64,000 nt of DNA from an uncultured Chloroflexia bacterium (GCA_963713285.1 CAVQLA010000014.1:140566-204565), one strand, 5' to 3'; counted from the first letter of the stretch, positions 3,881 to 25,758 are shown. Notes: generated from the letters alone by a model not told the origin. Translations and numbers: made by a program.

Positions 3881-4766
3881 TCGTCCCGCCGTAGCGCGCG
3901 ATCTGGGCGGCCTTCTCGGCGCGCTCCCGCGCCGAGTGCTCCTGGTGGATCGCGACGACGTCGGCGGGATCGCCCTCGGCGGCGATCCGCCCGTGCTCCA
4001 GCATGATCGCCCGGTTGCAGTACTCGGTGACCCACTGCATGTCGTGGGTGACGAGCACGATCGCCTTCGCCGACCGGACCAGCTCCAGCACCCGGGCCTT
4101 CGACTTCGCGCGGAAGACCTGGTCGCCCGTCGCGAGGACCTCGTCGAGCAGCAGCACGTCCGGGTCGACCGAGGTCGCGATCGAGAAGCCGAGCCTCGCC
4201 CGCATCCCCGACGAGTACGTCTTGATGGGGGCGTCGATGAACTCGCCGAGGTCGGCGAAGGCGACGATCGGCTCGAGGCGCTCCTCGACCTCGGCCTTCG
4301 TCATGCCCAGGAAGGCTCCGGCGAGCCGGACGTTCTCGCGCCCGGTCAGGTCCTGGTCGAAGCCAGCCCCCAGGGTCAGGAGGCTCGAGATGCGGCCGTG
4401 GACGAGGATCGAGCCCTCGGACGGCATCAGGATGCCCGCGAGCGCCTGCAGGAGGGTGCTCTTCCCCGCACCGTTGGGCCCGATGACCGCGAGCGACTCG
4501 CCGTTGGTGAGGCGGAACGAGACGTCCCGGAGCGCCCAGAACTCGCGGGCCCGCGAGCGGTCGCGCCGGGCGAAGTGGGCGAAGGTCTCGCGGAGGGTCG
4601 TCTTGCGGGTGAAGCGGAGGTTGTAGCGGATCCCGAGCCCGCCGACGTCGATCGCCGGCGATCCGCCGGCCGTCCACGGCGGAGCCGCGTCGTGGTCGTG
4701 GCGGGTGATCTCCCCGAGATCCCGCGCGTCCGCCGGTCCGACGCGCGGGGGTGCCGGCTGCGCCAT
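3870..4766 (-). CDS. wzt: ABC transporter ATP-binding protein of a polysaccharide/teichoic-acid exporter (Wzt/TagH/KpsT-like), 298 aa, no C-terminal carbohydrate-binding domain
   Basis: Walker A GPNGAGKST, ABC signature YSSGMRARLGFS, Walker B LLLDEVLATGD. The start ATG overlaps the stop of the upstream permease (ATGA). The long N-terminal extension in the ORF track is spurious. Confidence 0.85.
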   Translation of the reverse strand: MAQPAPPRVGPADARDLGEITRHDHDAAPPWTAGGSPAIDVGGLGIRYNLRFTRKTTLRETFAHFARRDRSRAREFWALRDVSFRLTNGESLAVIGPNGAGKSTLLQALAGILMPSEGSILVHGRISSLLTLGAGFDQDLTGRENVRLAGAFLGMTKAEVEERLEPIVAFADLGEFIDAPIKTYSSGMRARLGFSIATSVDPDVLLLDEVLATGDQVFRAKSKARVLELVRSAKAIVLVTHDMQWVTEYCNRAIMLEHGRIAAEGDPADVVAIHQEHSARERAEKAAQIARYGGTIKR

Positions 4767-5653
4767 CACAGCACCTTCGCGAACGACGGCTCGAGGCGCT
4801 TGAAGGTGGCGATGGCCACGAGCACCAGCCCGAGCGACACCACGAGCAGGGCGCCGAGCGCGGCCCAGTCCGGGAGGAGCGGCCCACCCTCCGGCGTCCC
4901 GTAGATCACGGCGCGATAGGCCTCGAACAGGATCGCGAACGGGTTGATCCTCAGCAGCGTGAGGATCACCGGGTACTGCTGGAGCAGGTCGCTCTCCTCG
5001 AGCAGCGCGATGGAGTAGAGGCCGGGAGAGAGGTAGAACCAGAGGCGCAGCGCATGCCGGGCGATGTTCCCCACGTCGCGCACGAACACGTTGAGGGCGG
5101 CCAGCACGAGCCCCAGGGCCAGGGTGAACACCAGCTGGACGACCGCGATGACCGGGATCAGGAGGAGCGTGAGGCTGAGGCGGTCGCGGTAGAGCAGGAG
5201 CAGGAGGCCCATGAGCGGGATCATCCCGAAGGCGAAGTTGACGACGCCGGCGAAGATGCCCGCCACGGGCAGCACGATCTTCGGGAACTGGAGCTGGCGG
5301 ATCAGGCTGCCCTGGCTCACGACCGAGGTGATCGAGTCGCCGACGCTGCTGGTGAACCACTTCCAGGGGAGGATCGCGGCGAAGATGAAGAGCGGGTAGT
5401 CCGGCTGCGGACGGGCGAAGATCACCGAGACGAGGATCACGTAGACGGCCATCTGCAGGAGGGGATCCAGCACCCACCAGACGTTGCCGAGCACCGTGTC
5501 GGCGCCCTTCTTGCGGAGGTCCGCCTGGACGAGGTAGCGGATCAGCTGCCGGCGCGAGAGGGCCTCGCGGATCCCTTCGACGACGAGTCCGGGGATGCCG
5601 GGCCGGATCGCCGAGTTCTGGACGGTGACGGGCTGCGCGGCGGGAGCGGACAT
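4766..5653 (-). CDS. wzm: ABC-2 type polysaccharide exporter permease (Wzm/TagG-like)
   Basis: 295 aa with six predicted TM helices and an ABC-2 permease architecture. Immediately upstream of, and coupled to, the ATPase gene. Confidence 0.8.
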   Translation of the reverse strand: MSAPAAQPVTVQNSAIRPGIPGLVVEGIREALSRRQLIRYLVQADLRKKGADTVLGNVWWVLDPLLQMAVYVILVSVIFARPQPDYPLFIFAAILPWKWFTSSVGDSITSVVSQGSLIRQLQFPKIVLPVAGIFAGVVNFAFGMIPLMGLLLLLYRDRLSLTLLLIPVIAVVQLVFTLALGLVLAALNVFVRDVGNIARHALRLWFYLSPGLYSIALLEESDLLQQYPVILTLLRINPFAILFEAYRAVIYGTPEGGPLLPDWAALGALLVVSLGLVLVAIATFKRLEPSFAKVL

Positions 5654-6234
5654 GGGCGGCGGAAGGGTAGCACAGGATCCCGGGCGCGCCGGGCCGGCCG
5701 CCTGGGTGGCCGTCCCGGCCCCGTGCCCCGCGCACCGGCCATCCTCGCCTTTGACCAGACTATCTACTCACCAGCGCCATCCTCCAGCACGGAGGTCACG
5801 CTGAAGTGCGGGTTCGCGTTGAGTCGCACGTTCAGGACTGGCGATCCTGACGAGACTATCTGTTCAGACCGCCACGAACTGCCACGCGAAGCCGGGCGCC
5901 GCCGCAGTCGACGACCCACCGGCCCGCTGCTCCGCCGGCGGCCACACCGCGCCAACGCGGACGGCCCACGGCCGCACCCGAGCGCCGCGCACCGGGGAGC
6001 CAGCCGCCGCCCACGACTCACGGCACTCCACGGCCACGCCGCGCCGCCGCCGAGCACCCCGGGCGACGCACGCGCGTCGCCACCGGGCGCCACCAGCAGC
6101 AGGCTCCACCGGTGCCGACCGCCAGGATCACGGAGCCGACGCGGTGACAGAGTCACGGAGCGTCACGAGGGGGCCGCCGGGGTAGCATTCGATCGATGCG
6201 TTCACGTGGCGCCGGCGGCGCCCGGCCGGTCTGC

Positions 6235-7422
6235 ATGATCACCCACTCCTACTACGAGGAGGATGCCCGCGTGCGGCGGGCCGCCGAGACCCTGGTCCTG
6301 GCCGGCCACCCCGTGGACGTCTTCGCGCTGCGGCGTCCGGGCGACTCGCCCGAGGCGATGCTCGAGGGTGTCCGGCTCCACCGGCTCGACGTGCGGCGCC
6401 ACCAGGGCGCCGGCATCGCGACCTACATGGCGGAGTACCTCGCGTTCCTGGTGCGGGCCACGTTCGCGGTCACGGCCAGCCACCGCCGGCGGCGGTATGG
6501 GCTCGTCCACGTGAACACGCTGCCGGACTTCCTCGCGTTCGCCGGCCTGCCGCTGCGCCTGGCTGCCGGCGTCCCGATCCTCCTGGACCTCCACGAGGCG
6601 ATGCCCGAGTTCTTCCGGGCGCGCTTCCCGGCGCGTGCCTCGCGGCTTGCCCACGAGGCGCTGCTGCTCCAGGAGCGCGCCTCGATCGCCATCGCCGCCG
6701 CGGTCGTGACGGTCAACGACGCGCTCGTCGAGCGCCTGGTGGAGCAGGGCGTGCAGCCGGCGAAGGTCACCGTGATCCTCAACGCCCCCGACCTCCGCCG
6801 GTTCGACCCTGCGGCGCACGCCACGCGCACCTTCGCGGAGGATGGCGTGCTGCGCCTCGTGTACGCCGGTGCGCTCACTCCCACGTACGAGCTCGACGTG
6901 GTCGTCGACGCCGTCGAGCTGCTCGGGCGCCTGCGCCCGGAGCTTCGGGTCACGCTCGACCTCTACGGGCGGGGCGACAGTGAGACCGCCCTCGGCGAGC
7001 GGGTGCGCGCCCACGGGCTCGCGGATCGCATCCGGCTCCACGGCCGCATCCCGCTGGAGGACGTGCCGGCCGCCATCGCGGCCGCCGACATCGGGCTGGC
7101 GCCCACCGCGCGCACCCCCTTCACGGACATGTCGCTCTCCACGAAGCTCTTCGAGTACGCGGCGATGGGCAAGCCGGTCATCGCCAGCTCCCTGCCGACC
7201 GTGGACCGGTACTTCCCGCAGGGGACCGTGGCTCACTACGCTCCGGGGGACCCCGAGGACCTGGCGCGGGCCATCCTGGCGCTGGTCGACGATCCGATCG
7301 CCCGCGAGGCCGGCCGGGCGGCGACGGGTCGGCGGGCCGCGGAGCTCTCGTGGGACGGGCAGGCGGCGCGCTACCTTGCGCTCGTCGAGCGTCTCTGTGC
7401 CGGCCGGGGGACGCGCCGGTGA
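6235..7422 (+). CDS. Glycosyltransferase, GT4 family
   Basis: MITHSYYEEDARVRRAAETLVLAGHPVDVF... with GT-B C-terminal motif TKLFEYAAMGKPVIASSLP. ATG at 6235; an in-frame upstream codon at 6196 is also possible. Divergent from wzm. Confidence 0.75.
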   Translation: MITHSYYEEDARVRRAAETLVLAGHPVDVFALRRPGDSPEAMLEGVRLHRLDVRRHQGAGIATYMAEYLAFLVRATFAVTASHRRRRYGLVHVNTLPDFLAFAGLPLRLAAGVPILLDLHEAMPEFFRARFPARASRLAHEALLLQERASIAIAAAVVTVNDALVERLVEQGVQPAKVTVILNAPDLRRFDPAAHATRTFAEDGVLRLVYAGALTPTYELDVVVDAVELLGRLRPELRVTLDLYGRGDSETALGERVRAHGLADRIRLHGRIPLEDVPAAIAAADIGLAPTARTPFTDMSLSTKLFEYAAMGKPVIASSLPTVDRYFPQGTVAHYAPGDPEDLARAILALVDDPIAREAGRAATGRRAAELSWDGQAARYLALVERLCAGRGTRR

Positions 7423-7612
7423 CCGGTCCCGGGGTGGGTCGCGACCGCCCGGCCTCCCGGGAAGGCGCGCGAGGCGGCAGAATGCGGGCTCGACCGGCAA
7501 CCGGTCGCCGGCCGGCCGGCGCGACGTCGTCCCCCGACGCGTCGGCCGCGGCGCCGCGCGGGACAGCACCGGCCGAGCGCCCGGGTTCGGGCGGCATGCC
7601 ACGGGAGGTCAG

Positions 7613-8929
7613 GTGATCCAGGAAGCATCGCCCGCGGATCGGCGCATCGCCGTCGTCGGGCTCGGGTATGTCGGTCTGCCGCTTGCCCTGGCGTTCGTCG
7701 AATCGGGCACCACCGTGGCCGGGCTCGACGCCAGCCCGAGCCGCGTGGCCGAGCTGGCCGCCGGGCACTCGCCGATCGAGGACGTCCCCGACGCGCGGCT
7801 GGCGGCGGCCCTCGCGGCCGGCTTCCGGCCGGTCGGGCCCGAGCCCTCCGAGATCGCCGCGGCGGACGCGGTCTTCGTCTGCGTCCCGACGCCCGTCACG
7901 GCCACCAAGGACCCCGACCTCGGGCCCGTGCTGGCGGCGGCGGAGCTCGTGCGGGCGGGGCTCCGGGCGGGGCAGCTGGTGGTCCTCCAGTCCACGACCT
8001 TCCCGGGCACGACCACGGGCGCCTTCCGCGCCGCCCTCGAGCGCGAGAGCGGGCTCGTCGCGGGCGTCGACTTCGACCTCGCCTTCGCCCCCGAGCGCGT
8101 CAACCCGGGCGACCCGGCCAGCTCCGGCAAGGCCGTGCCACGGCTGGTCGGCGGCCTCACGCCGCCCGCCACGACCCGCGCGGCCGCCCTGCTGCGCCGC
8201 ATCAACGACACCGTGGTCGAGCTCTCGTCGCCGGACGCCGCGGAGCTCGCGAAGCTCCACGAGAACGTGTTCCGGAACGTCAACATCGCCCTCGTCAACG
8301 AGCTCGCCCTCCTGTGCGAGCGGATGGGCCTCGACGTCTGGGAGATCATCGACGCGGCGGCCACGAAGCCGTTCGGGTTCATGAAGTTCACGCCCGGCCC
8401 CGGCGTCGGCGGCCACTGCATCCCCGTGGACCCGTACTACCTCGCGTGGCGTGCCCGCGAGTTCGACTTCAACGACCGCTTCGTCGAGCTCGCCGCCGAC
8501 GTCAACGTCGGCATGCCGCGCCACGTGGTCGACCTTGCCGCCGAGGCGCTCAACGACCGGGCACGCGCGCTGCGTGGCGCCCGGGTGGGGGTCGTCGGCG
8601 TGGCCTTCAAGCCCAACGTCGGCGACGCCCGCGAGTCGCCGGCTGCCGACGTCCTGGCCGGGCTGCGCGAGCGCGGCGCCGACGTCCGCTACCACGATCC
8701 GCACGTGGAGCGCTTCCGCGACGGCGCCGGCACCGAGAGCACGTCGGTGCCCCTCGCGGACCTGCTCGGCTGGGCCGAGATCGTCATCGTCGTGACCCCC
8801 CACGCCGCCGTGGACTGGGAGGCCGTCTACGGGCGGGCCGACCTCGTCCTCGACACCGTCAACTCCTCGCGCGGCCACCCGGTCCGCCCCCGCCAGGTCC
8901 TCCGCCTGGGTGCGGGGTGGAGCACCTGA
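7613..8929 (+). CDS. Nucleotide-sugar dehydrogenase (UDP-glucose/GDP-mannose dehydrogenase family; WecC/Cap5O-like UDP-ManNAc dehydrogenase is plausible)
   Basis: N-terminal Rossmann motif IAVVGLGYVGLPLALAF and catalytic-Cys motif GGHCIPVDP. GTG 7613 is preceded by GGGAGG. Confidence 0.85.
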   Translation: MIQEASPADRRIAVVGLGYVGLPLALAFVESGTTVAGLDASPSRVAELAAGHSPIEDVPDARLAAALAAGFRPVGPEPSEIAAADAVFVCVPTPVTATKDPDLGPVLAAAELVRAGLRAGQLVVLQSTTFPGTTTGAFRAALERESGLVAGVDFDLAFAPERVNPGDPASSGKAVPRLVGGLTPPATTRAAALLRRINDTVVELSSPDAAELAKLHENVFRNVNIALVNELALLCERMGLDVWEIIDAAATKPFGFMKFTPGPGVGGHCIPVDPYYLAWRAREFDFNDRFVELAADVNVGMPRHVVDLAAEALNDRARALRGARVGVVGVAFKPNVGDARESPAADVLAGLRERGADVRYHDPHVERFRDGAGTESTSVPLADLLGWAEIVIVVTPHAAVDWEAVYGRADLVLDTVNSSRGHPVRPRQVLRLGAGWST

Positions 8930-10950
8930 CGGTGGCCTCGCGACTGGTGCTGGTCGCCGCCGCCGAGGCGGCACCGCGCCCGGCGCCGGACGCGCGCGTC
9001 GTGGTCCTCGACACCGCCTGGACGCCGGGACCGGGCGACCGCGCGGACCTGGTCCCGCTGCGCCCGGCGGTGGCCGCCGCCCTGGAGCGGGAGGACCTGA
9101 TCGACCGGGCCATCGACCTCGTGGACGCCTGGGCCGCGCGCCTCGCCCTCGCCGAGCGGTCCACGTTCCGGGGCGTCAGCTGGTGGCCTCGCCGCGAGGC
9201 CTGGAAGTGGCTCGTCGGGAGCCTGCAGTGGCGCTCGATCCTCGACGAGGTGCTCCGCGACGCGGCGGCCATCGGCGTCGCGATCGACGAGCTGGTCGTG
9301 CCGCCCGGCGACGAGGCGCTCGCGCGCGCCGCCGCCGCCCTCGCCGCGGAGCATGGCCTGCAGGCGACCCGGGATGCCGGGGAGGGCCCGGCCGGGAGCG
9401 CCGCCGACGACCCGGGGGGCGACCCGCCCGGGGTCGCCGCTGCCGCCGCGTCCGGCCTGGGCGACCGGGTCCTCTGGCGCCTGGGCCGGCATCCGCGCCA
9501 GGTCCGCAAGCGCGAGCTCGACCGCCGCGCCGCGTTCCTGGCCGCCCGTGCCGAGCGCCTCGCGGCGGCGGGCGGGGGGCGCCTGCTCGTCATCACCGTG
9601 CCGCGGGTCCACCAGCGGATCGGCGGTGGCGACGCGCCGCTCGTCGACCCGTTCCTCGGCCCGGTGGTCGATCGCCTCCGGGGGACACGGCTCGACCCGA
9701 TCACGATCGCCCTCGGGCTCGACCGCGGCGACGACGCGGCATGGCCGGCGATCGAGGCCGACGAGCGGCTGCTCGCGGAGGCGTTCCTCCCGGCCCGCTG
9801 GTCCACCCTCGAGGACGACACGGCCGCGGCGGCGGCCGCGGCGGCGATCGGCCGAGCGCTCGACGAGGTGACGCCCGCCGACGCGGAAGGGGGAGACCTC
9901 GGCCATCTCGGCGCGGGCCTGCTCGAGGAGGTGCGCCGCGACGCCCGGACCCTCCTGGCCGCCCGGCTGCGGAAGGCGCTCCGGTTCGAGCGGTTCCTGC
10001 GCGAGCTCCGGCCGGCCGGGCTCCTCCTCTACAACGAGTACGGGCGGCTCGACTGGCTGGCGGGAGCGCGCTGGGCCGGGGTGCCGGTCGTCGCCGTCCA
10101 GCACGGCATCATCATCCCGGGCCACGTCGGCTACCGCCACGCCCGCCATCCCGGCCTCGTCCTCCCCGCCCGCACCTGCGTGTTCGGGCCGTACGAGGCG
10201 GGCGTCCTCCGCGACCACGGCGGCTACGCACCCGGGGAGGTCGTCGTCACCGGCTCGCCGCGGCCGGCGGCCGGGGTCGATGCGGCCTCGGCCGGGCCGC
10301 GGGCCGGCCTGCCGGCGGGCGCGCCCGCTCCGGCAGGCGTGCCCGCTGACGATGCCGGGCGGGCGCGCGAGCGCGACGACGTCCGGCGCGAGCTCGGCGT
10401 CGCCGACGGGGATCGCCTGCTCGTGATCTCCACGACCCGCGACCCGGACCTGCGACGGTTCCACCAGGACCATGCGTTCGCCCGCCTCCTGGACGGTCCG
10501 CTGCCCGGCGTGCACCTCGTCTTCAAGCAGCACCCCGCCGAGCCCGACCGCGGCGACTACGAGCGCCTGGTGGCGGGCCTGGCCCGCGCCGGCGGCTATC
10601 CGCCCCCGCCCGTCTCCGTCGTCCGCGACGTCGACCTCTACCGCCTCCTCCGGGCGGCCGACGCCCACCTCGGCCTCTACTCCACCGTCCTCACCGACGC
10701 CGTCGTGGCGGGAACCCCGAACCTCGTGGCGATCACCCAGGCCCGGGCCGACCTCCTCGGCTACGTCGCGGCAGGCGTCGCCGCGCCGGTTCGGACGCAC
10801 GCCGATCTGCGGGCCGCGCTGGAGGCGCCCCCGGTGCCCGATCCGGCCGCGCGCCGGGCGTTCCTCGACGACCACTTCCTGCCCGGCGATGGGACGGCCC
10901 GGATCGCCGACGCGGTGCTCGCCGTAACGGAGCTGGAGGTCCGCGGATGA
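8917..10950 (+). CDS. TagB/TagF- or KpsC/KpsS-like GT-B transferase with a K-x-HP motif; candidate CMP-keto-acid or polyol-phosphate transferase
   Basis: C-terminal half carries HLVFKQHPAEP and LGLYSTVLTDAVVAGTPNLVAI, which match the CDP-glycerol glycerophosphotransferase / capsule_synth pattern. GTG 8917 overlaps the dehydrogenase stop. Confidence 0.55.
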   Translation: MEHLTVASRLVLVAAAEAAPRPAPDARVVVLDTAWTPGPGDRADLVPLRPAVAAALEREDLIDRAIDLVDAWAARLALAERSTFRGVSWWPRREAWKWLVGSLQWRSILDEVLRDAAAIGVAIDELVVPPGDEALARAAAALAAEHGLQATRDAGEGPAGSAADDPGGDPPGVAAAAASGLGDRVLWRLGRHPRQVRKRELDRRAAFLAARAERLAAAGGGRLLVITVPRVHQRIGGGDAPLVDPFLGPVVDRLRGTRLDPITIALGLDRGDDAAWPAIEADERLLAEAFLPARWSTLEDDTAAAAAAAAIGRALDEVTPADAEGGDLGHLGAGLLEEVRRDARTLLAARLRKALRFERFLRELRPAGLLLYNEYGRLDWLAGARWAGVPVVAVQHGIIIPGHVGYRHARHPGLVLPARTCVFGPYEAGVLRDHGGYAPGEVVVTGSPRPAAGVDAASAGPRAGLPAGAPAPAGVPADDAGRARERDDVRRELGVADGDRLLVISTTRDPDLRRFHQDHAFARLLDGPLPGVHLVFKQHPAEPDRGDYERLVAGLARAGGYPPPPVSVVRDVDLYRLLRAADAHLGLYSTVLTDAVVAGTPNLVAITQARADLLGYVAAGVAAPVRTHADLRAALEAPPVPDPAARRAFLDDHFLPGDGTARIADAVLAVTELEVRG

Positions 10951-12710
10951 CCCTGCCGGTGCTCTTCCTGGTCCCGGCGCGCGGCGGCAGTGTCCGCGTC
11001 CCGGGGAAGAACCTGCGATCGGTGGCGGGCATCCCCCTCGTGGCGCACGGCGTGCGGATCGCGCGGGCGGCAGCGGCCCGAACCCCGGGCGGTCCCCACG
11101 CGGTGGCCTGCAGCACGGACGACCCCGCCATCGCGGCCGTCGCCCGCGCGTGGCATGCGGAGATCCCCTTCGAGCGCCCGGCCGCGCTCGCCGGGCCCGA
11201 CGCGTCGTCGGTCGACGTGGCCCTCCACGCCCTGGAGACCCTCGCGGCCCGCGGGCGCCGGTTCCGCGCCATCGTGCTCGTCCAGCCGACCTCACCCCTC
11301 GCCGATCCCGGCGATATCGCCGCGGCGGTCGCCGCGCTCGACGCCGACGGGGCGCCCGTCACGAGCGTCGTCGCCGCTCACCCGGTGGCCTGGCACGTCG
11401 CGCTCGACGCGGACCGGCGCCTGCGCCCGGTCGACGGAGATGCCCGCCACCTCCTGGCGGGGGCCTTCTACGCCATCACGCCCGGGGAGCTGGCGACGGC
11501 CCGGGCCTTCGTCGTTCCCGGCCGGACGCGCGGGCTGGAGGTGGCGGCCGCGACGGCGGTCGACATCGACACGGAGAACGACCTCGCCGTCGCCCGGGCG
11601 CTCGCGGCCTCGCGCCCCGTGCCGCCCGTCGCACTGGCGGGCCGCTCGATCGGGGATGGCCCCTGCTTCGTGATCGCCGAGGGCGGCGTCAACCACGACG
11701 GCGACCCGGCGCGCGCCCACCGGCTCGTCGACGCGGCGGCCGACGCGGCGGCCGACGCCGTGAAGTTCCAGGCGTTCGACCCGGCGCTCCTCGCCGCGGC
11801 CGGCGCCCCGCTGGCCGACTACCAGCGGGCGGCGGGCGAGACCGGGGCCGACCAGCGGGCGATGCTGGCCCGGCTCGCGCTTCCCGCCGGGGCGTGGCCC
11901 GGCCTCCGCGACCACGCCCACGACCGCGGCCTCGTCTTCCTGGCGAGCCCCTTCGACGAGCCGTCGGCGGACCTCCTGGAGGCGCTCGGGATCCCGGCGT
12001 TCAAGGTTGGCTCGGGCGAGCTCACGAACCTCCCGTTCCTCGAGCGGCTGGCGGGCGTCGGGCGGCCGCTCCTCGTCTCCACGGGGATGGCCACGCTGGT
12101 CGAGGTGGCCGATGCCCTCGACGCGATCGCGGGCAGCGGCGACCCGCCGGTGGCGCTTCTCCACTGCGTCTCCGCCTACCCGGCCGACCCGGCGGAGGCG
12201 AACCTCCGCGCGATCGCCACGTTGCGCGCCGCCTTCGGCCGCCCGTCCGGCTGGTCCGACCACACCCCAGGGATCGAGCTGCCCACGGCGGCGGCGGCCC
12301 TGGGCGCCGACCTCCTCGAGAAGCACCTGACGCTCGATCGGTCGCTGCCGGGTCCGGACCACCGGGCGTCGCTCGAGCCGGCCGAGATGACGGCCCTCGT
12401 CCGGGCCGTGCGCACCGTCGAGGTGGCCCGGGGCGACGGCGAGAAGGCGCCGTCCGCGGCGGAGCTGGCCGTGGCGGCGGTGGCCCGCAAGAGCCTCCAC
12501 TGGGCCCGGGCCCTCGCGGCCGGGGCCGCGGTCACGCCGGCCGACCTCGTCGCCCAGCGACCCGGGACGGGGCTGCCGCCCGGCGAGCGCGACCTCGTGA
12601 TCGGGCGCCGCACGAGGCGGCCCGTGCCGGCCGGCAGCCTCGTGACGCTCGCCGACGTCGAGGGCGACGTCGGGGCCGGCGTCGGGGCCGGCGGGGAGCC
12701 GCCCGCATGA
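10947..12710 (+). CDS. Bifunctional fusion: N-terminal CMP-nonulosonate cytidylyltransferase (NeuA/LegF-like) and C-terminal nonulosonate synthase (NeuB/LegI-like, PEP-dependent, with SAF domain)
   Basis: N-terminus LFLVPARGGSVRVPGKNL matches the CTP_transf_3 family. The C-terminal half has FVIAEGGVNHDGD...ADAVKFQAFD, FKVGSGELTNLPFLE and SDHTPGIELP (NeuB motifs), plus a SAF-like tail. ATGA overlap with the upstream gene. Confidence 0.85.
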   Translation: MTLPVLFLVPARGGSVRVPGKNLRSVAGIPLVAHGVRIARAAAARTPGGPHAVACSTDDPAIAAVARAWHAEIPFERPAALAGPDASSVDVALHALETLAARGRRFRAIVLVQPTSPLADPGDIAAAVAALDADGAPVTSVVAAHPVAWHVALDADRRLRPVDGDARHLLAGAFYAITPGELATARAFVVPGRTRGLEVAAATAVDIDTENDLAVARALAASRPVPPVALAGRSIGDGPCFVIAEGGVNHDGDPARAHRLVDAAADAAADAVKFQAFDPALLAAAGAPLADYQRAAGETGADQRAMLARLALPAGAWPGLRDHAHDRGLVFLASPFDEPSADLLEALGIPAFKVGSGELTNLPFLERLAGVGRPLLVSTGMATLVEVADALDAIAGSGDPPVALLHCVSAYPADPAEANLRAIATLRAAFGRPSGWSDHTPGIELPTAAAALGADLLEKHLTLDRSLPGPDHRASLEPAEMTALVRAVRTVEVARGDGEKAPSAAELAVAAVARKSLHWARALAAGAAVTPADLVAQRPGTGLPPGERDLVIGRRTRRPVPAGSLVTLADVEGDVGAGVGAGGEPPA

Positions 12711-13867
12711 CGCGCCGGGTCGCCGTTCTCACGACCGGCCGCCAGGACTGGGGCCTCCTGCGCTCCACGTGCGTGGCGCTCCGCGACGCGCACGGCGCCG
12801 AGGTCCTGGTGCTGGCCGGGGGGATGCACCTGAGCGGGCGCCACGGCAGGCCGATCGCGGCGGTGCGCGAGGACGGCTTCGAGCCGGCGGCGGAGATGCC
12901 CTGGCTGGGCGTCGACGCCGCCGCGGACCCCCCGGCCCACCGCCAGGCGGGCGCGGCGCTGGTGGCCGTGGGCGACGCGCTCGCCCGCCTGGACCCCGAT
13001 GCGCTCGTCGTCGCCGGGGATCGCCTCGAGACGGCCGCCGCCGCGCTGGCCGCGACCGTGGGACGCGTCCCCCTCGTCCATCTCCACGGCGGCGAGCAGA
13101 CGGGCGGCGCCTTCGACGACGCCCTGCGCCACGCGATCACGAAGCTGGCCCACCTCCACCTCGTCAGCCACGCCGAGCACGCCCGCCGCGTGATCGCCCT
13201 GGGCGAGGATCCCGCGACGGTGCACGTGATCGGACCCCCCGGGGTCGACGCCCTGGCGCGCCCGGACCTCCCCGGCCGAGCGGAGCTGGAGGCCGACCTC
13301 GGGATCGCCCTCGCGCCCCCGCTGGTCGTCGTCACCGTGCACCCGGCGACGCTCGACGCGGACCCCGCCGCGGTCGCTGCCCCGGTCGTGGCGGCGATGG
13401 GCGCCGTCGCGGCGACCTATGTCGTCACCCTGCCCAACAGCGATCCCGGCGGCGACGCGATCCGGGCTGCGCTCCTGGCGCACGCCGCCGGGCGCCCCGG
13501 CACGGTCGCCGTCGTCCCGGCGCTCGGCGAGCGTCGCTACTGGGGCCTCCTGCGCCTCGCCGACGCGATGCTCGGCAACAGCTCGAGCGCGATCGTCGAG
13601 GCGCCGGCGGTCGACCTCCCCGCGGTCGACGTCGGGGACCGCCAGGAGGGCCGCCGCCGGGAGGCCAACGTCATCCACGCCCTGTCCGACCCGGACGCCG
13701 TGGAGCGCGCCCTTCGCCGGGCGCTCGAGCCCGGGTACCGGGCGGCCGTCCGCGCTGCCCGCCCGCCCCTCGCCGACGGCCGGGCCGGCGAGCGTGCCGC
13801 CCGTATCATCGCGGCATGGCAGCCCTCCCGACCGCCGCGCAAGGCGCCCATCCCGGTGGACGGGTGA
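12707..13867 (+). CDS. Hydrolysing UDP/GDP-N-acetylglucosamine 2-epimerase (NeuC/LegG-like)
   Basis: MTRRVAVLTTGRQDWG...HLHGGEQTGGAFDDALRHAITKLAHLHL, the Epimerase_2 hydrolysing subtype. ATGA overlap with the upstream gene. Confidence 0.85.
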   Translation: MTRRVAVLTTGRQDWGLLRSTCVALRDAHGAEVLVLAGGMHLSGRHGRPIAAVREDGFEPAAEMPWLGVDAAADPPAHRQAGAALVAVGDALARLDPDALVVAGDRLETAAAALAATVGRVPLVHLHGGEQTGGAFDDALRHAITKLAHLHLVSHAEHARRVIALGEDPATVHVIGPPGVDALARPDLPGRAELEADLGIALAPPLVVVTVHPATLDADPAAVAAPVVAAMGAVAATYVVTLPNSDPGGDAIRAALLAHAAGRPGTVAVVPALGERRYWGLLRLADAMLGNSSSAIVEAPAVDLPAVDVGDRQEGRRREANVIHALSDPDAVERALRRALEPGYRAAVRAARPPLADGRAGERAARIIAAWQPSRPPRKAPIPVDG

Positions 13868-14529
13868 TGCCGCGGCGGCTGGTGGTCCTGGGCGGGGGCG
13901 AGCACGCCCGGGTCGTCGTCGACGCGGCGCGGTCCGCCGTCCCCGGCTGGGATGTCGTCGGGATCGTCGATCCGGGAGCCGCGGAGCGCACGCGGACGCT
14001 CCTCGCGGTCGAGCACCTGGGCGACGACGCGGCGTTCGCCGCCGCGCTGGACGGGATGCGGCCGGCCGAGCGACCGCACCTCGTGCTGGGGCTGGGCGCG
14101 ATGGGCGATCCCGCGGCGCGCCGTGCCCTGGTCGCCCGCTACGAGGGCCGCGCGCCGTGGGCCACGCTCGTCCACGGGGCCGCCTGGGTCGCCCCGTCGG
14201 CCACCCTCGGGCCGGGCGCCGTCATCCTCGCGGGTGCCGTGGTCAACGCGGGCGCCGACGTCGGCGACCACGCTGTCGTCAACAGCGGCGCGATCCTCGA
14301 GCACGACGCGGTCCTCGGCGCGTTCGCCCAGCTGGCGCCGGGCGCGGTCGTCGGCGGCGCCGCGGTCGTCGAGGCGGACGCCTACGTCGCGATCGGCGCG
14401 CTCGTGCGCGACCACGTGACCGTGGGCCGCGGCGCGGTGGTGGGAATGGGCGCGGCCGTCGTGGCCGACGTGCCGGAGGATGCGGTCGTCGTCGGCGTCC
14501 CGGCCCGGCGCCGAGAGGCGTCCCGGTGA
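13867..14529 (+). CDS. Hexapeptide-repeat sugar N/O-acetyltransferase (NeuD/LegH/PglD-like)
   Basis: N-terminal Rossmann-like LVVLGGGEHARVVVD, followed by left-handed beta-helix hexapeptide repeats (GAVVNAGADVGDHAVVNSGAILEHD...). ATG overlaps the NeuC stop. Confidence 0.8.
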   Translation: MPRRLVVLGGGEHARVVVDAARSAVPGWDVVGIVDPGAAERTRTLLAVEHLGDDAAFAAALDGMRPAERPHLVLGLGAMGDPAARRALVARYEGRAPWATLVHGAAWVAPSATLGPGAVILAGAVVNAGADVGDHAVVNSGAILEHDAVLGAFAQLAPGAVVGGAAVVEADAYVAIGALVRDHVTVGRGAVVGMGAAVVADVPEDAVVVGVPARRREASR

Positions 14530-15569
14530 GCGACCGGATCAGCCCGGCCCTCGTGCCCGTCGAGGGCTCACTCCGCGATGCCATGCGGGCGCTCGACGTG
14601 GGCGCCCTGCGCATCGCCCTCGTCGTCGACGGGGAGGGGCGGCTCGTCGGCGTGACCACCGACGGCGACGTCCGCCGCGCGCTCCTCTCCGGCGTCCGCC
14701 TCGACGATCCCCTCGGCCCGCACGTGACGCGCGCGTTCACGGCCGTCACGCCGCGCGACGGCCGGGCCGACGTGATCGACCTGATGCGGGCCCGGCACAT
14801 CGGGGCCGTCCCGGTCCTCGACGACGCCGGCCGGCCGGTGGCGCTCCACCTCCTGGACGAGGCCCTGGCCCCGGCGGAGCGCACGACCTGGGCGGTGGTG
14901 ATGGCCGGCGGCCGGGGCGTCCGCCTCCGTCCCCTCACCGAGAACGTCCCCAAGCCGATGCTGCGCGTCGCCGGGCGGCCGATCCTCGAGCGGATCGTCC
15001 TGCACCTCGTCGGTCACGGCATCACCCGGATCCACCTCGCCATCGGCTACCTCGGGGACAGGATCGAGGAGCACTTCGCGGACGGCAGCCGCTTCGGGGC
15101 CCGGATCTCGTACCTCCGCGAGGACGAGCCGCTGGGCACCGGCGGCGCCCTCGGCCTCCTGCCCGAGCTGCCCCGCGAGCCGCTCCTCGTGATGAACGGC
15201 GACCTCGTCACCCAGGCCGACCTGGGCGCCCTGCTCGACGTCCACGCCGCGCGGGGAGACGTCGCGACGATCGGCGTCCGGCGCTACGTCCACGCCGTCC
15301 CGTTCGGCTGCGTCGAGCGCGCCGGGGACCGCATCGTCGGGCTCGAGGAGAAGCCGACGCTCACGCGCGACGTGAACACCGGCATCTACGCCCTGGCGCC
15401 CGGGCTCGTCGCGCGGGTCGAGCGCGGGCGGCCGGTCGGGATGCCCGACCTCATCGGCGATGCCCTCGCGCGCGGCGAGCCCGTGGGCGCCTTCGAGATC
15501 GAGGACGACTGGATCGACGTCGGGCAGCGCGAGCAGCTCGACCGCGCCCGCGGAGGTGGCGACGCATGA
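14526..15569 (+). CDS. CBS-domain sugar-phosphate nucleotidyltransferase (PtmE-like, putative GlcN/GlcNAc-1-P guanylyltransferase)
   Basis: Tandem CBS pair (LRIALVVDGEGRLVGVTTDGDVRRAL...) followed by an NTP_transferase core WAVVMAGGRGVRLRPLTENVPKPML. GTG overlaps the upstream stop. Confidence 0.8.
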   Translation: MSDRISPALVPVEGSLRDAMRALDVGALRIALVVDGEGRLVGVTTDGDVRRALLSGVRLDDPLGPHVTRAFTAVTPRDGRADVIDLMRARHIGAVPVLDDAGRPVALHLLDEALAPAERTTWAVVMAGGRGVRLRPLTENVPKPMLRVAGRPILERIVLHLVGHGITRIHLAIGYLGDRIEEHFADGSRFGARISYLREDEPLGTGGALGLLPELPREPLLVMNGDLVTQADLGALLDVHAARGDVATIGVRRYVHAVPFGCVERAGDRIVGLEEKPTLTRDVNTGIYALAPGLVARVERGRPVGMPDLIGDALARGEPVGAFEIEDDWIDVGQREQLDRARGGGDA

Positions 15570-16559
15570 CCCTGCGCGACGTGCCCGTGCTCGTCACCGG
15601 CGCGGACGGCTTCATCGGCAGCCACCTCGTGGAGCGCCTTGTCGCGGAGGGCGCCCGCGTGCGGGCGTTCTGCCTCTACACGTCCCGCGGGAGCTGGGGC
15701 TGGCTCGACGAGGCCCCGCCGGACGTGCGCGCCGCGCTCGACGTGCGGCTCGGGGACGTCCGCGACGCCCGCTTCGTCGCCGAGGCGACGGACGGCGTCG
15801 AGGTGGTCTTCCACCTCGCGGCGCTCATCGCGATCCCGTACTCGTACACGGCGCCCGAATCGTTCGTCGACACGAACGTTCGCGGCACCCTCAACGTCCT
15901 CGAGGCGGCCCGAAGGACGGCGGTCCGGCGCGTGATCGTCACGAGCACCAGCGAGGTCTACGGCACGCCGGAGATCCTCCCGATCACCGAGGCCCACCCG
16001 CTCAACGCGCAGTCCCCGTACGCGGCGACCAAGGTGGCGGCCGACCAGCTGGCGCTTGCCTACCACCGCAGCTACGGGGTGCCGGCCGTCATCCTCCGGC
16101 CGTTCAACACGTACGGCCCGCGCCAGTCCGCGCGGGCCGTCCTGCCCACGATGCTCCGCCAGCTGCTCGCCGGCCGGACCCAGGTGCGCCTGGGCCGCCT
16201 GGATCCGCGCCGCGACCTCACGTACGTCGCCGACACCGTGGACGGGTTCGTCCGCGCGGCGACGGCGGCAGGGATCGACGGCGCGACGATCCAGCTCGGG
16301 ACGGGCGGCACCGAGTCGATCGCGGAGCTGTTCGCGCGTGCCTGCCGCCTGCTCGGCGTCGACGCGGTCGCGGTCGAGGATGCCGGGCGCCTGCGGCCCG
16401 ACGCCAGCGAGGTCCTGGCCCTGCAAGTCGGACCCGTCCCGGGCCCGGGAGCTGCTCGGCTGGACGGCGACGACCAGCCTGGACGCGGGCCTCCGGGAGA
16501 CCATCGCCTGGCTCCGCGCCCACCCCGAGCCCGGCGACGTCGACCGTGTCCAGCTCTGA
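15566..16559 (+). CDS. NAD-dependent sugar nucleotide 4,6-dehydratase/epimerase (LegB-like SDR), apparent +1 frameshift near nt 16430
   Basis: MTLRDVPVLVTGADGFIGSHLV..., YxxxK in PYAATKVAAD. The reading frame switches after EVLALQ to continue DPSRARELLGWTATTSLDAGLRETIAWLRAHPE and ends at 16559. ATGA overlap with the upstream gene, GGAGG RBS. Confidence 0.7.
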
Positions 16560-17703
16560 CGCTCGCCGGCGGATCCCGCTCGCGGAGCCGACGCTGGGGG
16601 GCAACGCCGAGCGCTACCTGCGCGAGTGCCTCGCCACGAACTTCGTCTCTTCGGTGGGGCCGTTCGTCGAGCGTTTCGAGCGCGAGTTCGCCGCCGCCGT
16701 CGGCAGCCGCCACGCCGTCGCGTGCTCCTCGGGCACGGCCGCCCTCCACCTGGCGATGCGGGTCCTCGACGTCGGGCCCGGCGACGAGGTCTTCGTCCCG
16801 ACCCTGACCTTCGTCGCCTCCGCCAACCCGATCCGCTACGAACGCGCGACCCCGGTCCTCGTCGACGTCGAGGAGGAGACCCTCAACCTGGACCCCGGCA
16901 TCGTCGCCGACGAGCTCGCCCGCCGGGCTCGCCTGGGCCTGCGGCAGCCCAGGGCGATCGAGGTCGTCCACCTCGTGGGCCACCCCGCGGACATCGTCCC
17001 GCTCCTCGATGCCGCCGCGCGCCACGGGGTGCCGGTCATCGAGGACGCCTCCGAGGCGCTCGGGGCGACGTACCGGGGCGGGAGCCTCGACGGGCGCTCC
17101 GTGGGCACGCTGGGGCGCGTCGGCTGTTTCAGCTTCAACGGCAACAAGATCATCACCACCGGCGGCGGGGGGATGGTGACGACCGACGACGAGGCCCTCG
17201 CCCGGCGCGCGCGCCACCTCTCGACGCAGGCCCGGCTTCCCGGCCGGGCGTACGACCACGACGAGGTCGGGTACAACTACCGGCTCACCAACCTCGCCGC
17301 GGCCCTCGGGGTGGCGCAGCTCGAGCTGCTCCCCGACCTCCTCGCCGCCCGGCGGGCCGTGGCCTCCCGCTACGACACGGCGCTCGCGGCGGCGCCCCTC
17401 CTGCGCCCCGCTCCGCGGGCGCCGTGGGCCGATCCCAGCTTCTGGCTCTACACCGCCCGGCTGGCGGCACCCGACGCCGCGGTGCGCGACCGGGTGCTGG
17501 ATGCCCTCGCGGCCCGCGCCATCGACGCCCGGCCGATCTGGACGCCGATCCACGCCCTGGCGCCGTACGCGGATGCGCCGCGCCTCGGCGGCGCGGTCGC
17601 CGAGCGGATCTTCGCCGCGGCGCTCAGCCTGCCCTCGTCCTCGTCGCTCGCCCCTGCCGACCAGGACCGCGTGGTGGAGGCGCTGCGCGTCGCGCTCGCC
17701 TGA
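16546..17703 (+). CDS. DegT/DnrJ/EryC1/StrS-family PLP-dependent sugar aminotransferase (LegC/PseC-like)
   Basis: IPLAEPTLGGNAERYLRECLATNFVSSVGPFVERFE..., with the PLP-lysine region FSFNGNKIITTGGGGMV. Confidence 0.85.
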   Translation: MSSSDARRRIPLAEPTLGGNAERYLRECLATNFVSSVGPFVERFEREFAAAVGSRHAVACSSGTAALHLAMRVLDVGPGDEVFVPTLTFVASANPIRYERATPVLVDVEEETLNLDPGIVADELARRARLGLRQPRAIEVVHLVGHPADIVPLLDAAARHGVPVIEDASEALGATYRGGSLDGRSVGTLGRVGCFSFNGNKIITTGGGGMVTTDDEALARRARHLSTQARLPGRAYDHDEVGYNYRLTNLAAALGVAQLELLPDLLAARRAVASRYDTALAAAPLLRPAPRAPWADPSFWLYTARLAAPDAAVRDRVLDALAARAIDARPIWTPIHALAPYADAPRLGGAVAERIFAAALSLPSSSSLAPADQDRVVEALRVALA

Positions 17704-17850
17704 GCCCGGCCCGCCCGCGTTGCCGCTTCTTCACCGGGACCACATCGCCCGGCCACCCGGCCACGCGCCCGGGGTGCGGTACGATGCGCCGGGCCCGCCA
17801 CCGTGGCGCCGCGCCCCGGAGCACCCGACCACCAACCGACAAGAGGCACC

Positions 17851-19584
17851 ATGACCTTCCGCGCTCGCCCGACGACGCGGACCGGCCGCCGCAGCGGCTA
17901 CGAGTCCGAGTCCCGGCGGAACCTCTACTTCAACATCGGATTCGGCGCCGTCGTCGTCCTCGCCGTCCTGCTGCTGGTCGGCGCGGCCGCGGCCAGCTGG
18001 TACGACGAGCACCTGGCCCCGGTGGCCCGGGTCAACGGGGAGACGATCACGAAGGACGGCCTGCGCGCGGCGATCGCCCTCGAGACGTTCCGGCTCGACA
18101 CCCTGGAGTCCCGGACGCGCGAGAAGGCCACCGCCGGCCGCATGTCCGCCGCCCAGGGCCAGCAGCTGCTCAACTACATCGCCGAGCAGCAGCAGCAGGT
18201 CGCGAGCGTGGCCTACGAGCGCGAGATCGACACGACGCTCCTCCTGCAGCTGGCGCCCAAGCAGGGCGTCGAGGTGTCGGACGCCGAGATCGACGCCCAG
18301 ATCACCGAGGACGCCACGACACCGGAGAGCCGCCACACCTACCAGGTCCAGGTGGTCCCGGAGGTCAGCACCGGCGCCACCGACCCGACCGCCGAGCAGA
18401 TCGAGGCGGCGCGCAAGAAGGCCGAAGGGCTCCGCGCCGACCTCGAGGGCGGCAAGGCGTGGGAGGACGTCGTCGCGGCGTCCGGCGACGCGGATGCGGC
18501 CGAGACGGACGGCGACCTCTACTTCATCGACGAGCGCTCGACCTCGCCCGACAAGGCATTCGTCGAGGCGATCTTCGCCCTCGCGGCGCCCGGCTACACC
18601 GACGTCGTCGAGGGCGCCGACGGCGTCTTCCGCATCGGCCGGATGACCGAGATCGCACCCGCCGTCGTCGACCCGAACTACCTCCAGGATGCCGAGGACG
18701 CCGGCGTCGACGAGGCCACCTACCGCCGCTCCGCGGAGGCGATCGTCGCGGTCGACAAGATCGAGGCCGACCTCCTCGCCGAGGTCGTCGAGAAGCCGTC
18801 CGAGCAGCGGCGAGCCGGCGAGATCGCCCTCGAGAACAACGGCGGCGACCCGATCGCGCCCGGAGCGGTCCTCGTGAAGCACCTGCTCTACTCGCCCGCC
18901 GACGACCCCGGCGGAGCCGCCGAGCTCGCCGCCGACGACCCGGCGTGGAAGGCGGCGGAGGAGGAGGCCCGGAAGGCCTTCGACGACCTGAAGGCCGGCA
19001 ACCAGCGCTTCGTGGATCTCGCGCCCGGCAGCGACGACGCCACGTCGGCGGCGGCGAACGGGTTCCTGCCGTACTTCGCCAAGGACGACCCAACCGCGCA
19101 GCTCGACCCTGCCTTCTCCGCCGCGATCTTCGCCGAGGGCCTCGAGCCCGGCCAGCTCCTCGAGCCGGTCAAGACCGCCTTCGGCTGGCACGTGATCCAG
19201 TTCGTCACCACGGACGGCCCGGCCGTCCGGTCGCAGGCCGTCCTCGCCGAGGCCTCGCAGCCGGGCGCCGACTTCGCGGCGCTCGCCGCGGAGCATTCCA
19301 TCGCGGCGTCGGCCGTCGACGGCGGCGACCTGGGCTGGATCGCGCGCTACCAGCTCGCCCGCGAGGTGGAAGAGCCGATCTTCGCGACCCAGGCGAAGGG
19401 CTTCACCGAGGCCGTCGCCGGCAGCGAGGGCCTGGTCTTCTACACGGTGAGCGAGATCGCCACCCGGCTGCCCGACCCGGAGCAGGTCACGACCCTGGAA
19501 GCCAGCGCGTTCAGCAACTGGTACCAGGGGATCAAGAACGATCCCGACCAGACGACCATCGAGCGGCTCCTCTCGGCCGCCTGA
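17851..19584 (+). CDS. Membrane-anchored peptidyl-prolyl cis-trans isomerase (PrsA/SurA-like, parvulin domain)
   Basis: N-terminal TM segment (NLYFNIGFGAVVVLAVLLLVGAAAA) and a parvulin core GWHVIQFV. AAGAGG RBS lies 4 nt before the ATG. Confidence 0.8.
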   Translation: MTFRARPTTRTGRRSGYESESRRNLYFNIGFGAVVVLAVLLLVGAAAASWYDEHLAPVARVNGETITKDGLRAAIALETFRLDTLESRTREKATAGRMSAAQGQQLLNYIAEQQQQVASVAYEREIDTTLLLQLAPKQGVEVSDAEIDAQITEDATTPESRHTYQVQVVPEVSTGATDPTAEQIEAARKKAEGLRADLEGGKAWEDVVAASGDADAAETDGDLYFIDERSTSPDKAFVEAIFALAAPGYTDVVEGADGVFRIGRMTEIAPAVVDPNYLQDAEDAGVDEATYRRSAEAIVAVDKIEADLLAEVVEKPSEQRRAGEIALENNGGDPIAPGAVLVKHLLYSPADDPGGAAELAADDPAWKAAEEEARKAFDDLKAGNQRFVDLAPGSDDATSAAANGFLPYFAKDDPTAQLDPAFSAAIFAEGLEPGQLLEPVKTAFGWHVIQFVTTDGPAVRSQAVLAEASQPGADFAALAAEHSIAASAVDGGDLGWIARYQLAREVEEPIFATQAKGFTEAVAGSEGLVFYTVSEIATRLPDPEQVTTLEASAFSNWYQGIKNDPDQTTIERLLSAA

Positions 19585-25364: not shown

Positions 25365-25365
25365 G

Positions 25366-25746
25366 TCAGCCCCCCACCATCGGCGCCGCGCCCGGCGCGG
25401 CGAGGGCCGCCCAGGTCCCGAAGGCGAACAGGGCAAGGCCGAGCACCGTGAGCCCGACGTTGATCGTCCTCCGCAGGCCGGCGCCGGGGTTGAGCTCCAT
25501 CAGGATGTTGCGAAACCCGTAGAACCCGTGGTACAGCGCCGCCCCCAGCAGGAGCACGTACGTCACCGTGAAGAAGACGCTCCCCGCCCGGGCGGCGACG
25601 CTCTCCCACTCGACCGGCTCCGCGCCGGCCGTGCCGAAGATCCCGAGCGTCTGGTCGAGATGCATGATCGCCATGTGCAGGCCGAGGAGGACGAGGATCA
25701 CCACGCCTGCGCCGATGTGCCAGGTCCAGAGGGTCCGGTCGCGCAT
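25366..25746 (-). CDS. sdhD: Succinate dehydrogenase hydrophobic membrane anchor subunit
   Basis: 126 aa with three TM helices and a His-containing helix (LHMAIMH). Confidence 0.75.
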   Translation of the reverse strand: MRDRTLWTWHIGAGVVILVLLGLHMAIMHLDQTLGIFGTAGAEPVEWESVAARAGSVFFTVTYVLLLGAALYHGFYGFRNILMELNPGAGLRRTINVGLTVLGLALFAFGTWAALAAPGAAPMVGG

Positions 25747-25758
25747 CGTTCCGCCCCC

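Follow-up and report, generated by a model that had tools for sequence, protein, structure and literature searches.

A probable legionaminic-acid-type cassette and a candidate nonulosonate transferase in a cell-envelope glycan locus of an uncultured Chloroflexota bacterium

We analysed a 64,000-nucleotide stretch of DNA from an uncultured Chloroflexia bacterium (GCA_963713285.1 CAVQLA010000014.1:140566-204565), hereafter the window, with positions counted from its first letter. Judged from the sequence, the segment 10947-17703 on the plus strand is very probably a cassette for a nonulosonic acid (NulO) of the legionaminic acid (Leg) type, activated by cytidine monophosphate (CMP) and set in a cell-envelope glycan locus. 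The cassette itself is ordinary, a recognised and widespread seven-function unit; of more interest is the gene immediately upstream, g8, as its product is probably the enzyme that links the sugar to the cell surface. The host belongs, by protein identities of up to 94% to related metagenome-assembled genomes (MAGs), to a Limnocylindria-like lineage of Chloroflexota. Metagenomes of soil and freshwater, together with MAGs that bear the name Chloroflexota, supply the best protein matches (85-94% identity). The MAGs recovered in a scan of a genome collection carry the labels uncultured Chloroflexia and Candidatus Limnocylindrales (phylum Chloroflexota, class Limnocylindria). These relatives displace the high-GC, Gram-positive-like or actinobacterial host that an earlier note on this DNA had proposed. 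Limnocylindria-like Chloroflexota are abundant, uncultured inhabitants of soil and freshwater, and their envelope chemistry is essentially uncharted. A literature search returned no paper tying nonulosonic acids to Chloroflexi/Chloroflexota, and the cassette stands as the first documented example in this lineage; otherwise it adds little.

Architecture of the cassette

The sequence has a G+C content of about 76%, and spurious long open reading frames (ORFs) are present in all frames. True coding frames were picked by a frame plot of G+C at third codon positions (GC3) and domains were identified by Pfam and NCBIfam scans. The segment holds six ORFs with seven enzymatic functions, two of which are joined in the first ORF:

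10947-12710, plus strand: g9, legF-legI fusion, 587 aa, with CTP_transf_3, NeuB and SAF domains
12707-13867, plus strand: g10, legG, NeuC-type nucleoside diphosphate (NDP)-sugar-hydrolysing 2-epimerase, 386 aa, Epimerase_2/NeuC
13864-14529, plus strand: g11, legH, NeuD/PglD-type hexapeptide N-acetyltransferase, 221 aa, PglD_N and Hexapep
14526-15569, plus strand: g12, ptmE/legX-type sugar-1-phosphate nucleotidyltransferase, 347 aa, two CBS domains and NTP_transferase
15566-16559, plus strand: g13, legB, NAD-dependent NDP-N-acetylglucosamine (GlcNAc) 4,6-dehydratase of the short-chain dehydrogenase/reductase (SDR) family, with a one-nucleotide insertion; the uncorrected frame runs to 16807
16546-17703, plus strand: g14, legC, pyridoxal phosphate-dependent 4-aminotransferase, 385 aa, DegT

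Four-nucleotide ATGA/GTGA start/stop overlaps are found at 12707, 13864, 14526 and 15566, and likewise between g8 and g9 at 10947. Such overlaps suggest that the cassette is co-translated as one operon, with g8 and the dehydrogenase gene g7 further upstream included. A scan of 5500-18000 for sigma-70 promoters and intrinsic terminators found none, a result that is uninformative at 76% G+C, and the operon boundaries therefore depend on the gene overlaps only. Of the seven consecutive overlapping genes described in the earlier note, the overlaps and the seven functions hold, but the genes number six, seven being reached only by counting g8, which lies outside the segment. The exact g9, g10 and g12 proteins are present in public records, which confirms these gene calls.

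Enzyme families and type of pathway

The g9 fusion carries a cytidylyltransferase domain in its N-terminal half (CTP_transf_3, residues ~5-220, 48.5 bits against a cut-off of 22.6) and a synthase in its C-terminal half, composed of a NeuB TIM barrel (260-500, 268.8 bits) followed by a SAF domain (517-572, 35.3 bits). A PseF-like model aligned to residues 8-218 with 86 bits, under its equivalog cut-off, and NeuA entries of the PDB match this half as well. For the synthase, the NeuB model TIGR03569 scored 359.9 bits (cut-off 400) versus 238.6 for PseI. The closest solved structure is SpsE of Bacillus subtilis (1vli, 188.9 bits, 39% identity; NeuB 136 and PseI 135), and spsE is required for Leg synthesis in that organism (PMC7439481). 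In a quick and rough neighbour-joining (NJ) tree, built without bootstrap on four PDB reference sequences, three of them with known product, the window synthase clusters with synthases from loci that encode PtmE, LegB and LegC, two Rhodospirillales MAGs among them, and apart from Campylobacter jejuni PseI and Neisseria meningitidis NeuB.

The remaining enzymes are congruent with this assignment. g10 exceeds the cut-off of the NeuC model (TIGR03568 NeuC_NnaA, 325 versus 235.9 bits; Pfam Epimerase_2 207 bits) and is clearly distinct from the non-hydrolysing WecB (38 bits), while g11 exceeds that of TIGR03570 (175.5 versus 160.8 bits) and combines PglD_N with Hexapep repeats, with no GNAT match. 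The hydrolysing epimerase and the hexapeptide acetyltransferase read earlier from the sequence are thereby borne out. Frame-corrected g13 scored 412 bits with the LegB model TIGR04180, covering model positions 1-295 of 297 (cut-off 475), the runners-up being dTDP-glucose dehydratase (155 bits) and PseB (58 bits). g14 matches Pfam DegT with 343 bits and scored 398.2 bits with the LegC model TIGR04181, 22 under the cut-off of 420, compared to 253.5 for PseC. Sub-cut-off scores for LegB, LegC and NeuB are unsurprising in a distant phylum. Furthermore, an internal control is offered by two related loci, L023 and L031, on which the same models gave PseC 404 versus LegC 214, PseB 271 and PseG 165 (above cut-off); as they call pseudaminic acid (Pse)-type cassettes there, the models discriminate within the lineage. 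The window cassette shows the reverse pattern, with PseC below LegC and neither PseG nor a GNAT enzyme in the cassette. Thus, the claim of a legionaminic-type rather than pseudaminic or sialic acid pathway is favoured by the hidden Markov model (HMM) scores, by the synthase tree, rough as it is, and by marker criteria from the literature, and the three arguments on which the earlier note built it (CBS nucleotidyltransferase, hydrolysing epimerase, hexapeptide acetyltransferase) are those biochemically validated for Tannerella forsythia.

The nucleotidyltransferase and the nucleotide route

The g12 product has two CBS domains at residues 7-~110 followed by NTP_transferase at 123-338, and is encoded together with legB and legC. 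An architecture of two tandem CBS domains and a nucleotidyltransferase, that of Cj1329 (PtmE) and LegX, has been proposed as a marker of Leg versus Pse pathways (bioRxiv 10.1101/2022.03.25.485807). Indeed, among the loci with a recognisable cassette (7 syntenic ones from Chloroflexota genomes and 38 from metagenomes), PtmE homologues occur in every Leg-type locus long enough to reach the position and in no Pse-type locus. For annotation purposes, the double-CBS nucleotidyltransferase hence cleanly separates the two cassette types in a distant phylum. We also considered g12 as a ManC-type mannose-1-phosphate guanylyltransferase, and rejected it on a score of 140 bits where the cut-off is 440, the CBS pair being an additional feature; the PtmE-like reading of the earlier note, which had named this enzyme as the competing assignment, is in agreement with the published architecture.

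PtmE is specific for guanosine triphosphate, and T. forsythia LegB (BFO_1074) accepts only guanosine diphosphate (GDP)-GlcNAc (PMC5378307). By analogy, the pathway of the window is probably GDP-linked. The earlier note had called it GDP-dependent; the Leg-type part of that statement stands, while the dependence on GDP is carried over from the PtmE and LegB precedent.

The legB reading frame

As written, the legB frame has no stop near 16557 and stays open to 16807, whereas the coding signal ends near 16429. An SDR-typical C-terminus (SDPSRARELLGW...VQL*) is found in a different frame from the upstream part of the gene. In a DNA alignment the window reads CTGCAAGTCGG where five of five related loci have CTGC-AGTCGG, which locates an extra A at ~16425/16426. 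Once one A is deleted, the frame yields a 330-aa LegB with its stop (TGA) at 16557-16559 and a 14-nucleotide overlap with the legC start (GTG 16546), and the TIGR04180 score rises from 397 bits to the 412 given above. In the relatives both parts of legB are contiguous and in frame, including the C-terminal 43 residues in L001, L002, L004, L006 and L010. The frame is thus not intact in the window, though the GxxGxxG (GADGFIGSH) and YxxxK (YAATK) motifs are present. From these comparisons, an assembly error appears somewhat more likely than a real pseudogene. Described as complete in the earlier note, the module does encode all functions, but its completeness is conditional on the insertion being such an error.

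Frame disturbances are also seen elsewhere in the lineage. The closest related MAG, L001, has its own frame break in the gene at 434-1841, the ortholog of the glycosyltransferase family 4 (GT4) gene at window 1134-2519, and several genes of L009 match only as split fragments. Together this suggests that indel errors are common in these related MAG assemblies.

A candidate nonulosonate transferase upstream of the cassette

The gene that directly precedes the cassette encodes a member of a protein family with no transmembrane segment:

8932-10950, plus strand: g8, divergent TagF/TagB-like protein of the GT-B glycosyltransferase fold, 672 aa; its stop overlaps the legF-legI start

Neither Pfam nor NCBIfam domains match g8, and a profile search against PDB sequences yielded noise only (stathmin-like coiled coils at E > 0.08). 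A word-index search recovered 36 close homologues, all hypothetical save one "CDP-glycerol glycerophosphotransferase family protein", while the number of cluster representatives in an exhaustive profile search was 309 for E <= 1e-30 and 4530 for E <= 1e-3. Distant members of this family exceed the cut-off of Glyphos_transf (TagF/TagB, PF04464), which the window protein itself does not match. The AlphaFold model is confident (mean predicted local distance difference test score, pLDDT, 88.5) and adopts a GT-B fold, with TarL and TagF as the best functional fold matches. Bacterial GT-B sialyl- and nonulosonyltransferases are defined by an HP motif, a D/E-D/E-G motif and a CMP-nonulosonate donor; the g8 family has invariant Q-H-G and K-x-H-P motifs.

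The neighbourhood of g8 is informative in this respect. Of 80 metagenome loci chosen solely for g8 homology, 45 had enough flank to judge: Leg-type cassettes adjoin g8 in 13, Pse-type cassettes in 25 and the first genes of a Pse-type cassette in 2, with no such gene within 3-5.6 kb in the other 5. Homologues thus stand beside CMP-nonulosonate clusters of either type in 38-40 of the 45 loci. In L023, moreover, the dehydrogenase and SurA on either side share 81-84% identity with their window counterparts, about as in L001, yet the cassette is Pse-like and g8 only ~44-53% identical, which indicates that g8 was exchanged together with the cassette. Locus L031 has two tandem g8 paralogues. A separation of the g8 C-terminal domain by cassette type was considered and discarded, as identities are ~46-60% beside Leg cassettes (79% in L001, the closest) versus 44-57% where the cassette is of the Pse type. 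The N-terminal half varies greatly and is too divergent for comparison by tblastn.

Neighbourhood and modelled fold together make g8 a candidate CMP-Leg transferase. As a broader proposal, tentative and in our estimate somewhat short of an even chance, g8 and its ~300 cluster-level relatives may constitute an unannotated TagF/TagB-like GT-B family that transfers or polymerises CMP-Leg or CMP-Pse onto a glycopolymer containing N-acetylmannosaminuronic acid (ManNAcA) and exported by an ATP-binding cassette (ABC) transporter in monoderm Chloroflexota. Transferase and cassette would then be swapped as a unit at a fixed slot between the dehydrogenase and surA-mazG, so that closely related soil lineages would display different sialic-acid-like surfaces. 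Considering that Leg and Pse transferases are scarce and poorly defined (PMC5420450), the family supplies a testable transferase candidate with a confident structure model, and its natural Leg/Pse swap variants are usable for mapping donor specificity.

Conservation of the cassette and of the fusion

Loci from 7 Chloroflexota genomes and 13 metagenome loci keep the gene order of the cassette, with proteins 50-94% identical to those of the window, and it is therefore not a chance arrangement. In the 7 genomes the order reads WecB, GT4, GT4, ABC-2 exporter (on the minus strand), GT4, sugar dehydrogenase, g8, LegFI, LegG, LegH, PtmE, LegB, LegC, SurA-like peptidyl-prolyl isomerase, MazG, RNase PH and Ham1. 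The LegF-LegI fusion is found in every Leg-type locus of the lineage and in more than 120 metagenomic protein clusters (60-94% full-length identity), several of which already go by N,N'-diacetyllegionaminate synthase or SpsE/CMP-NeuAc synthetase at source. Abundant as it is in sequence databases, a search of the literature for a described LegF-LegI fusion found none. The earlier note overstates the novelty of the module, as public data contain both cassette and fusion in abundance. The TIGR04180 and TIGR04181 models were presumably defined from this same seven-function cassette (NeuABCD homologues, aminotransferase, nucleotidyltransferase, dehydratase) in Leptospira.

At 9992-12532 of a Rhodospirillales MAG (L007), LegF (233 aa) and LegI (351 aa) are separate proteins with a 268-aa gene between them, and PtmE, LegB and LegC follow 4 kb further; the fusion is thus lineage-specific rather than universal.

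Close relatives harbour Pse-type cassettes in the same chromosomal slot, at 8009-14579 of L023 (minus strand) and 9954-16564 of L031 (plus strand). These comprise PseB, an extra SDR, PseC, a cytidylyltransferase, a NeuB-family synthase, a PseG-like protein and a methyltransferase, with an additional ATP-grasp enzyme in the L031 type. In the NJ tree the L023-type synthases fall nearer SpsE than PseI, and the product of the L023-type cassette is consequently uncertain.

Comparison with known systems

The CMP-Leg pathway of C. jejuni proceeds through PtmE, LegB, LegC, LegH, LegG, LegI and LegF (Schoenhofen et al. 2009, via PMC5378307). To the extent that the pathway is summarised there, the window agrees with it in the seven enzyme functions, in the family used at each step, in the CBS nucleotidyltransferase and in the hydrolysing 2-epimerase that takes the place of PseG. 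On the same account, it differs in the fused LegF/LegI (587 aa), in having no PgmL, PtmA or PtmF nearby, and in its setting, an ABC-transporter glycan locus of Chloroflexota rather than a flagellar glycosylation island. The Leg locus of T. forsythia FDC 92A2/UB4 likewise has a PtmE homologue and a PglD-like acetyltransferase as LegH, and related strains carry Pse in place of Leg at the same locus (PMC5378307, PMC5420450). Its NulO transferase TFUB4_00887 is also GT-B/TagB-like, carries an HP motif, is conserved in the C-terminal half and variable in the N-terminal one, and acts on a ManNAcA acceptor, genes for the synthesis of which are adjacent in the window (PMC5420450). This likeness of g8 to the Tannerella transferases is one of description; g8 is devoid of a detectable Pfam domain. 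T. forsythia, of a different phylum, decorates a protein O-glycan, whereas an ABC-exported polymer is probable here.

LegX of Brevundimonas subvibrioides shares the two tandem CBS domains followed by the nucleotidyltransferase and the position beside legB, and this architecture discriminates Leg from Pse here too (bioRxiv 10.1101/2022.03.25.485807). LegX serves flagellin glycosylation via FlmG, however, and the window contains no flagellin, Maf or FlmG genes. The sps system of B. subtilis resembles the window in SpsE (189 bits, 39% identity), in the monoderm organism and in surface-layer decoration, and departs from it in the route linked to uridine diphosphate (UDP), the PglF/PseB-like dehydratase SpsM and the lack of PtmE (PMC7439481). 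In contrast to the TagF/TarL/TagB CDP-polyol phosphotransferases (PF04464; PDB 3l7i, 8va1), g8 misses the Pfam model, and its family stands beside CMP-nonulosonate rather than CDP-glycerol or CDP-ribitol genes.

Proposed biosynthesis and use of the sugar

By homology to the C. jejuni and T. forsythia pathways, g12 would make a GDP-hexosamine that is converted to GDP-GlcNAc, the substrate for C4,6 dehydration by LegB. Amination at C4 by LegC and N-acetylation by LegH would yield NDP-2,4-diacetamido-2,4,6-trideoxyglucose, from which LegG is predicted to remove the nucleotide with epimerisation at C2. The C-terminal half of the fusion (LegI) would subsequently condense the product with phosphoenolpyruvate to Leg5Ac7Ac, which the N-terminal half (LegF) would activate to CMP-Leg. 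Most likely, CMP-Leg is used by g8, which would place Leg on a ManNAcA-containing glycan, with ManNAcA supplied by WecB and the dehydrogenase; the glycan would be built by the neighbouring GT4 enzymes and exported by the adjacent ABC-2 transporter. We infer from homology and context the exact product, the donor and acceptor of g8, the nucleotide specificity and the functionality of legB.

Alternative readings

Several observations weigh against a functional, GDP-linked Leg pathway with g8 as its transferase. The scores of LegB, LegC, NeuB and the cytidylyltransferase domain all lie under the NCBI curated equivalog cut-offs and so fall short of formal membership, and the synthase was placed by the quick, unbootstrapped NJ tree with its four PDB references. 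legB is frameshifted in this sequence, and a real insertion would impair the first committed step. Nucleotide specificity is unreadable from sequence, and B. subtilis and Legionella make Leg via UDP intermediates. No PgmL, PtmA, PtmF or GlmU partner is encoded within the 64-kb window, so the search for such partners proposed by the earlier note came up empty there, and the source of GDP-GlcNAc is left to unseen housekeeping enzymes. Finally, the role of g8 is read from neighbourhood and fold, and for 5 of its 45 judged homologues a NulO gene is missing within 3-5.6 kb.

The sub-cut-off scores leave room for another product, be it a different 5,7-diamino nonulosonate (Pse, or a 4-epi or 8-epi isomer of Leg) or plain N-acetylneuraminic acid, the more so as NeuB-family HMMs cannot tell LegI from NeuB and relatives carry other NulO cassettes at the same locus. 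We regard this as highly improbable: PseB, PseG and a GNAT PseH are missing, with PseB at 58 bits and PseC 145 bits under LegC; the route to N-acetylneuraminic acid requires neither dehydratase nor aminotransferase; the cassette has no extra epimerase, methyltransferase or ATP-grasp gene, unlike the Pse-type cassettes; and the synthase clusters apart from both PseI and NeuB. With Leg as the favoured product, the sugar may still be made via UDP-linked intermediates, the route taken by Legionella, Acinetobacter and B. subtilis, with g12 making a UDP- or other NDP-sugar or serving another glycan. Two nucleotide routes to Leg are known, and the top NCBIfam matches of g12 include uridylyltransferases (MurU 120 bits, archaeal GlmU-like 133 bits). 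Nevertheless, UDP routes use PglF/SpsM-type dehydratases (PMC7439481) while the dehydratase here is of the LegB type, g12 has the PtmE/LegX architecture and strictly co-varies with LegB and LegC, and the T. forsythia LegB is GDP-specific (PMC5378307), rendering a UDP route distinctly unlikely. More serious is the prospect of a pathway that is dead or crippled in this genome through a real legB insertion, a recent pseudogene that would leave the module incomplete. The extra A is in the given sequence and missing from five relatives, it swaps the last 43 residues, among them the LGW segment that is conserved, for an out-of-frame tail that reaches 16807 and overlaps legC by 262 nucleotides, and LegC with the 16546 start has no exact public match, unlike g9, g10 and g12, which suggests that the depositors' gene caller was disturbed here. 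On the other hand, this is the only frame break detected over ~22 kb collinear with L001, the codon bias (GC3 ~0.97) carries on without disturbance past the shift, in the new frame, none of the partner genes is damaged, and the breaks in L001 and L009 are compatible with indel errors in such assemblies. A genuine lesion is accordingly a real possibility, but the less probable of the two.

As for g8, it could be a genuine teichoic-acid-type polyol-phosphate transferase acting on CDP-glycerol or CDP-ribitol, in which case Leg would be moved by a GT4 or by an enzyme encoded elsewhere. The fold matches to TarL and TagF, the distant relatives above the Glyphos_transf cut-off and the single homologue with a CDP-glycerol glycerophosphotransferase name all point in this direction. 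However, no TagD/TarI/TarJ-type CDP-polyol genes were seen in the window or in the two scanned loci L023 and L031, and CMP-NulO is the only CMP-linked donor made next door. Moreover, g8 homologues follow NulO clusters of two or three kinds, g8 is swapped with the cassette in close relatives, as the flanks of L023 illustrate, and the T. forsythia NulO transferases are similarly TagB-like (PMC5420450). A polyol-phosphate transferase is thus rather unlikely, and the proposal of a nonulosonate transferase is retained.

The surrounding glycan locus and the rest of the window

Upstream of g8, the glycan locus comprises the following genes:

1-1020, plus strand: g1, non-hydrolysing UDP-GlcNAc 2-epimerase (WecB), cut by the window edge; TIGR00236 220 bits, cut-off 210
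1134-2519 and 2543-3880, plus strand: two GT4 glycosyltransferases; Pfam Glyco_trans_1_4 / Glycos_transf_1
3870-4652 (ATPase) and 4766-~5767 (permease), minus strand: ABC-2 polysaccharide exporter; Pfam ABC_tran and ABC2_membrane, conserved in related loci
6229-7422, plus strand: g6, GT4 glycosyltransferase; Pfam Glyco_trans_4_4 and Glyco_trans_1_4
7613-8929, plus strand: g7, nucleotide-sugar dehydrogenase, UDP-N-acetylmannosamine (ManNAc) dehydrogenase-like; TIGR03026 385 bits, above cut-off

The top equivalog-type matches of g7 are UDP-ManNAc dehydrogenases, with 237 and 220 bits, below their cut-offs. On this basis g7 probably supplies ManNAcA together with WecB, and by analogy ManNAcA is a possible acceptor sugar. 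The G+C content is 75-79% across positions 1-24000, which hold the glycan locus and adjoining housekeeping genes, versus 69-73% across 24000-64000.

A fusion of an AT3 acyltransferase with an SGNH domain, a candidate glycan O-acetyltransferase, is encoded at 22311-~24413 on the plus strand, 4.6 kb downstream of the cassette and past surA-mazG-rph-ham1; a homologue lies directly upstream of g8 in the metagenome locus L064. The other features noted are all on the minus strand. A succinate dehydrogenase/fumarate reductase operon (24534-27932) comprises an iron-sulfur subunit, two Sdh_cyt membrane subunits and a flavoprotein, and 29491-31441 holds an extracytoplasmic function (ECF) sigma factor and, after it, a 468-aa protein that matches Kelch weakly and may be an anti-sigma partner. 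A giant 2889-aa ORF at 33083-41749, with GH94 supersandwich, GH94 catalytic, glucoamylase-like and GH65-C domains, resembles a cyclic beta-1,2-glucan synthase/phosphorylase-type protein, and an RTX calcium-binding repeat protein is encoded at 41931-42986.

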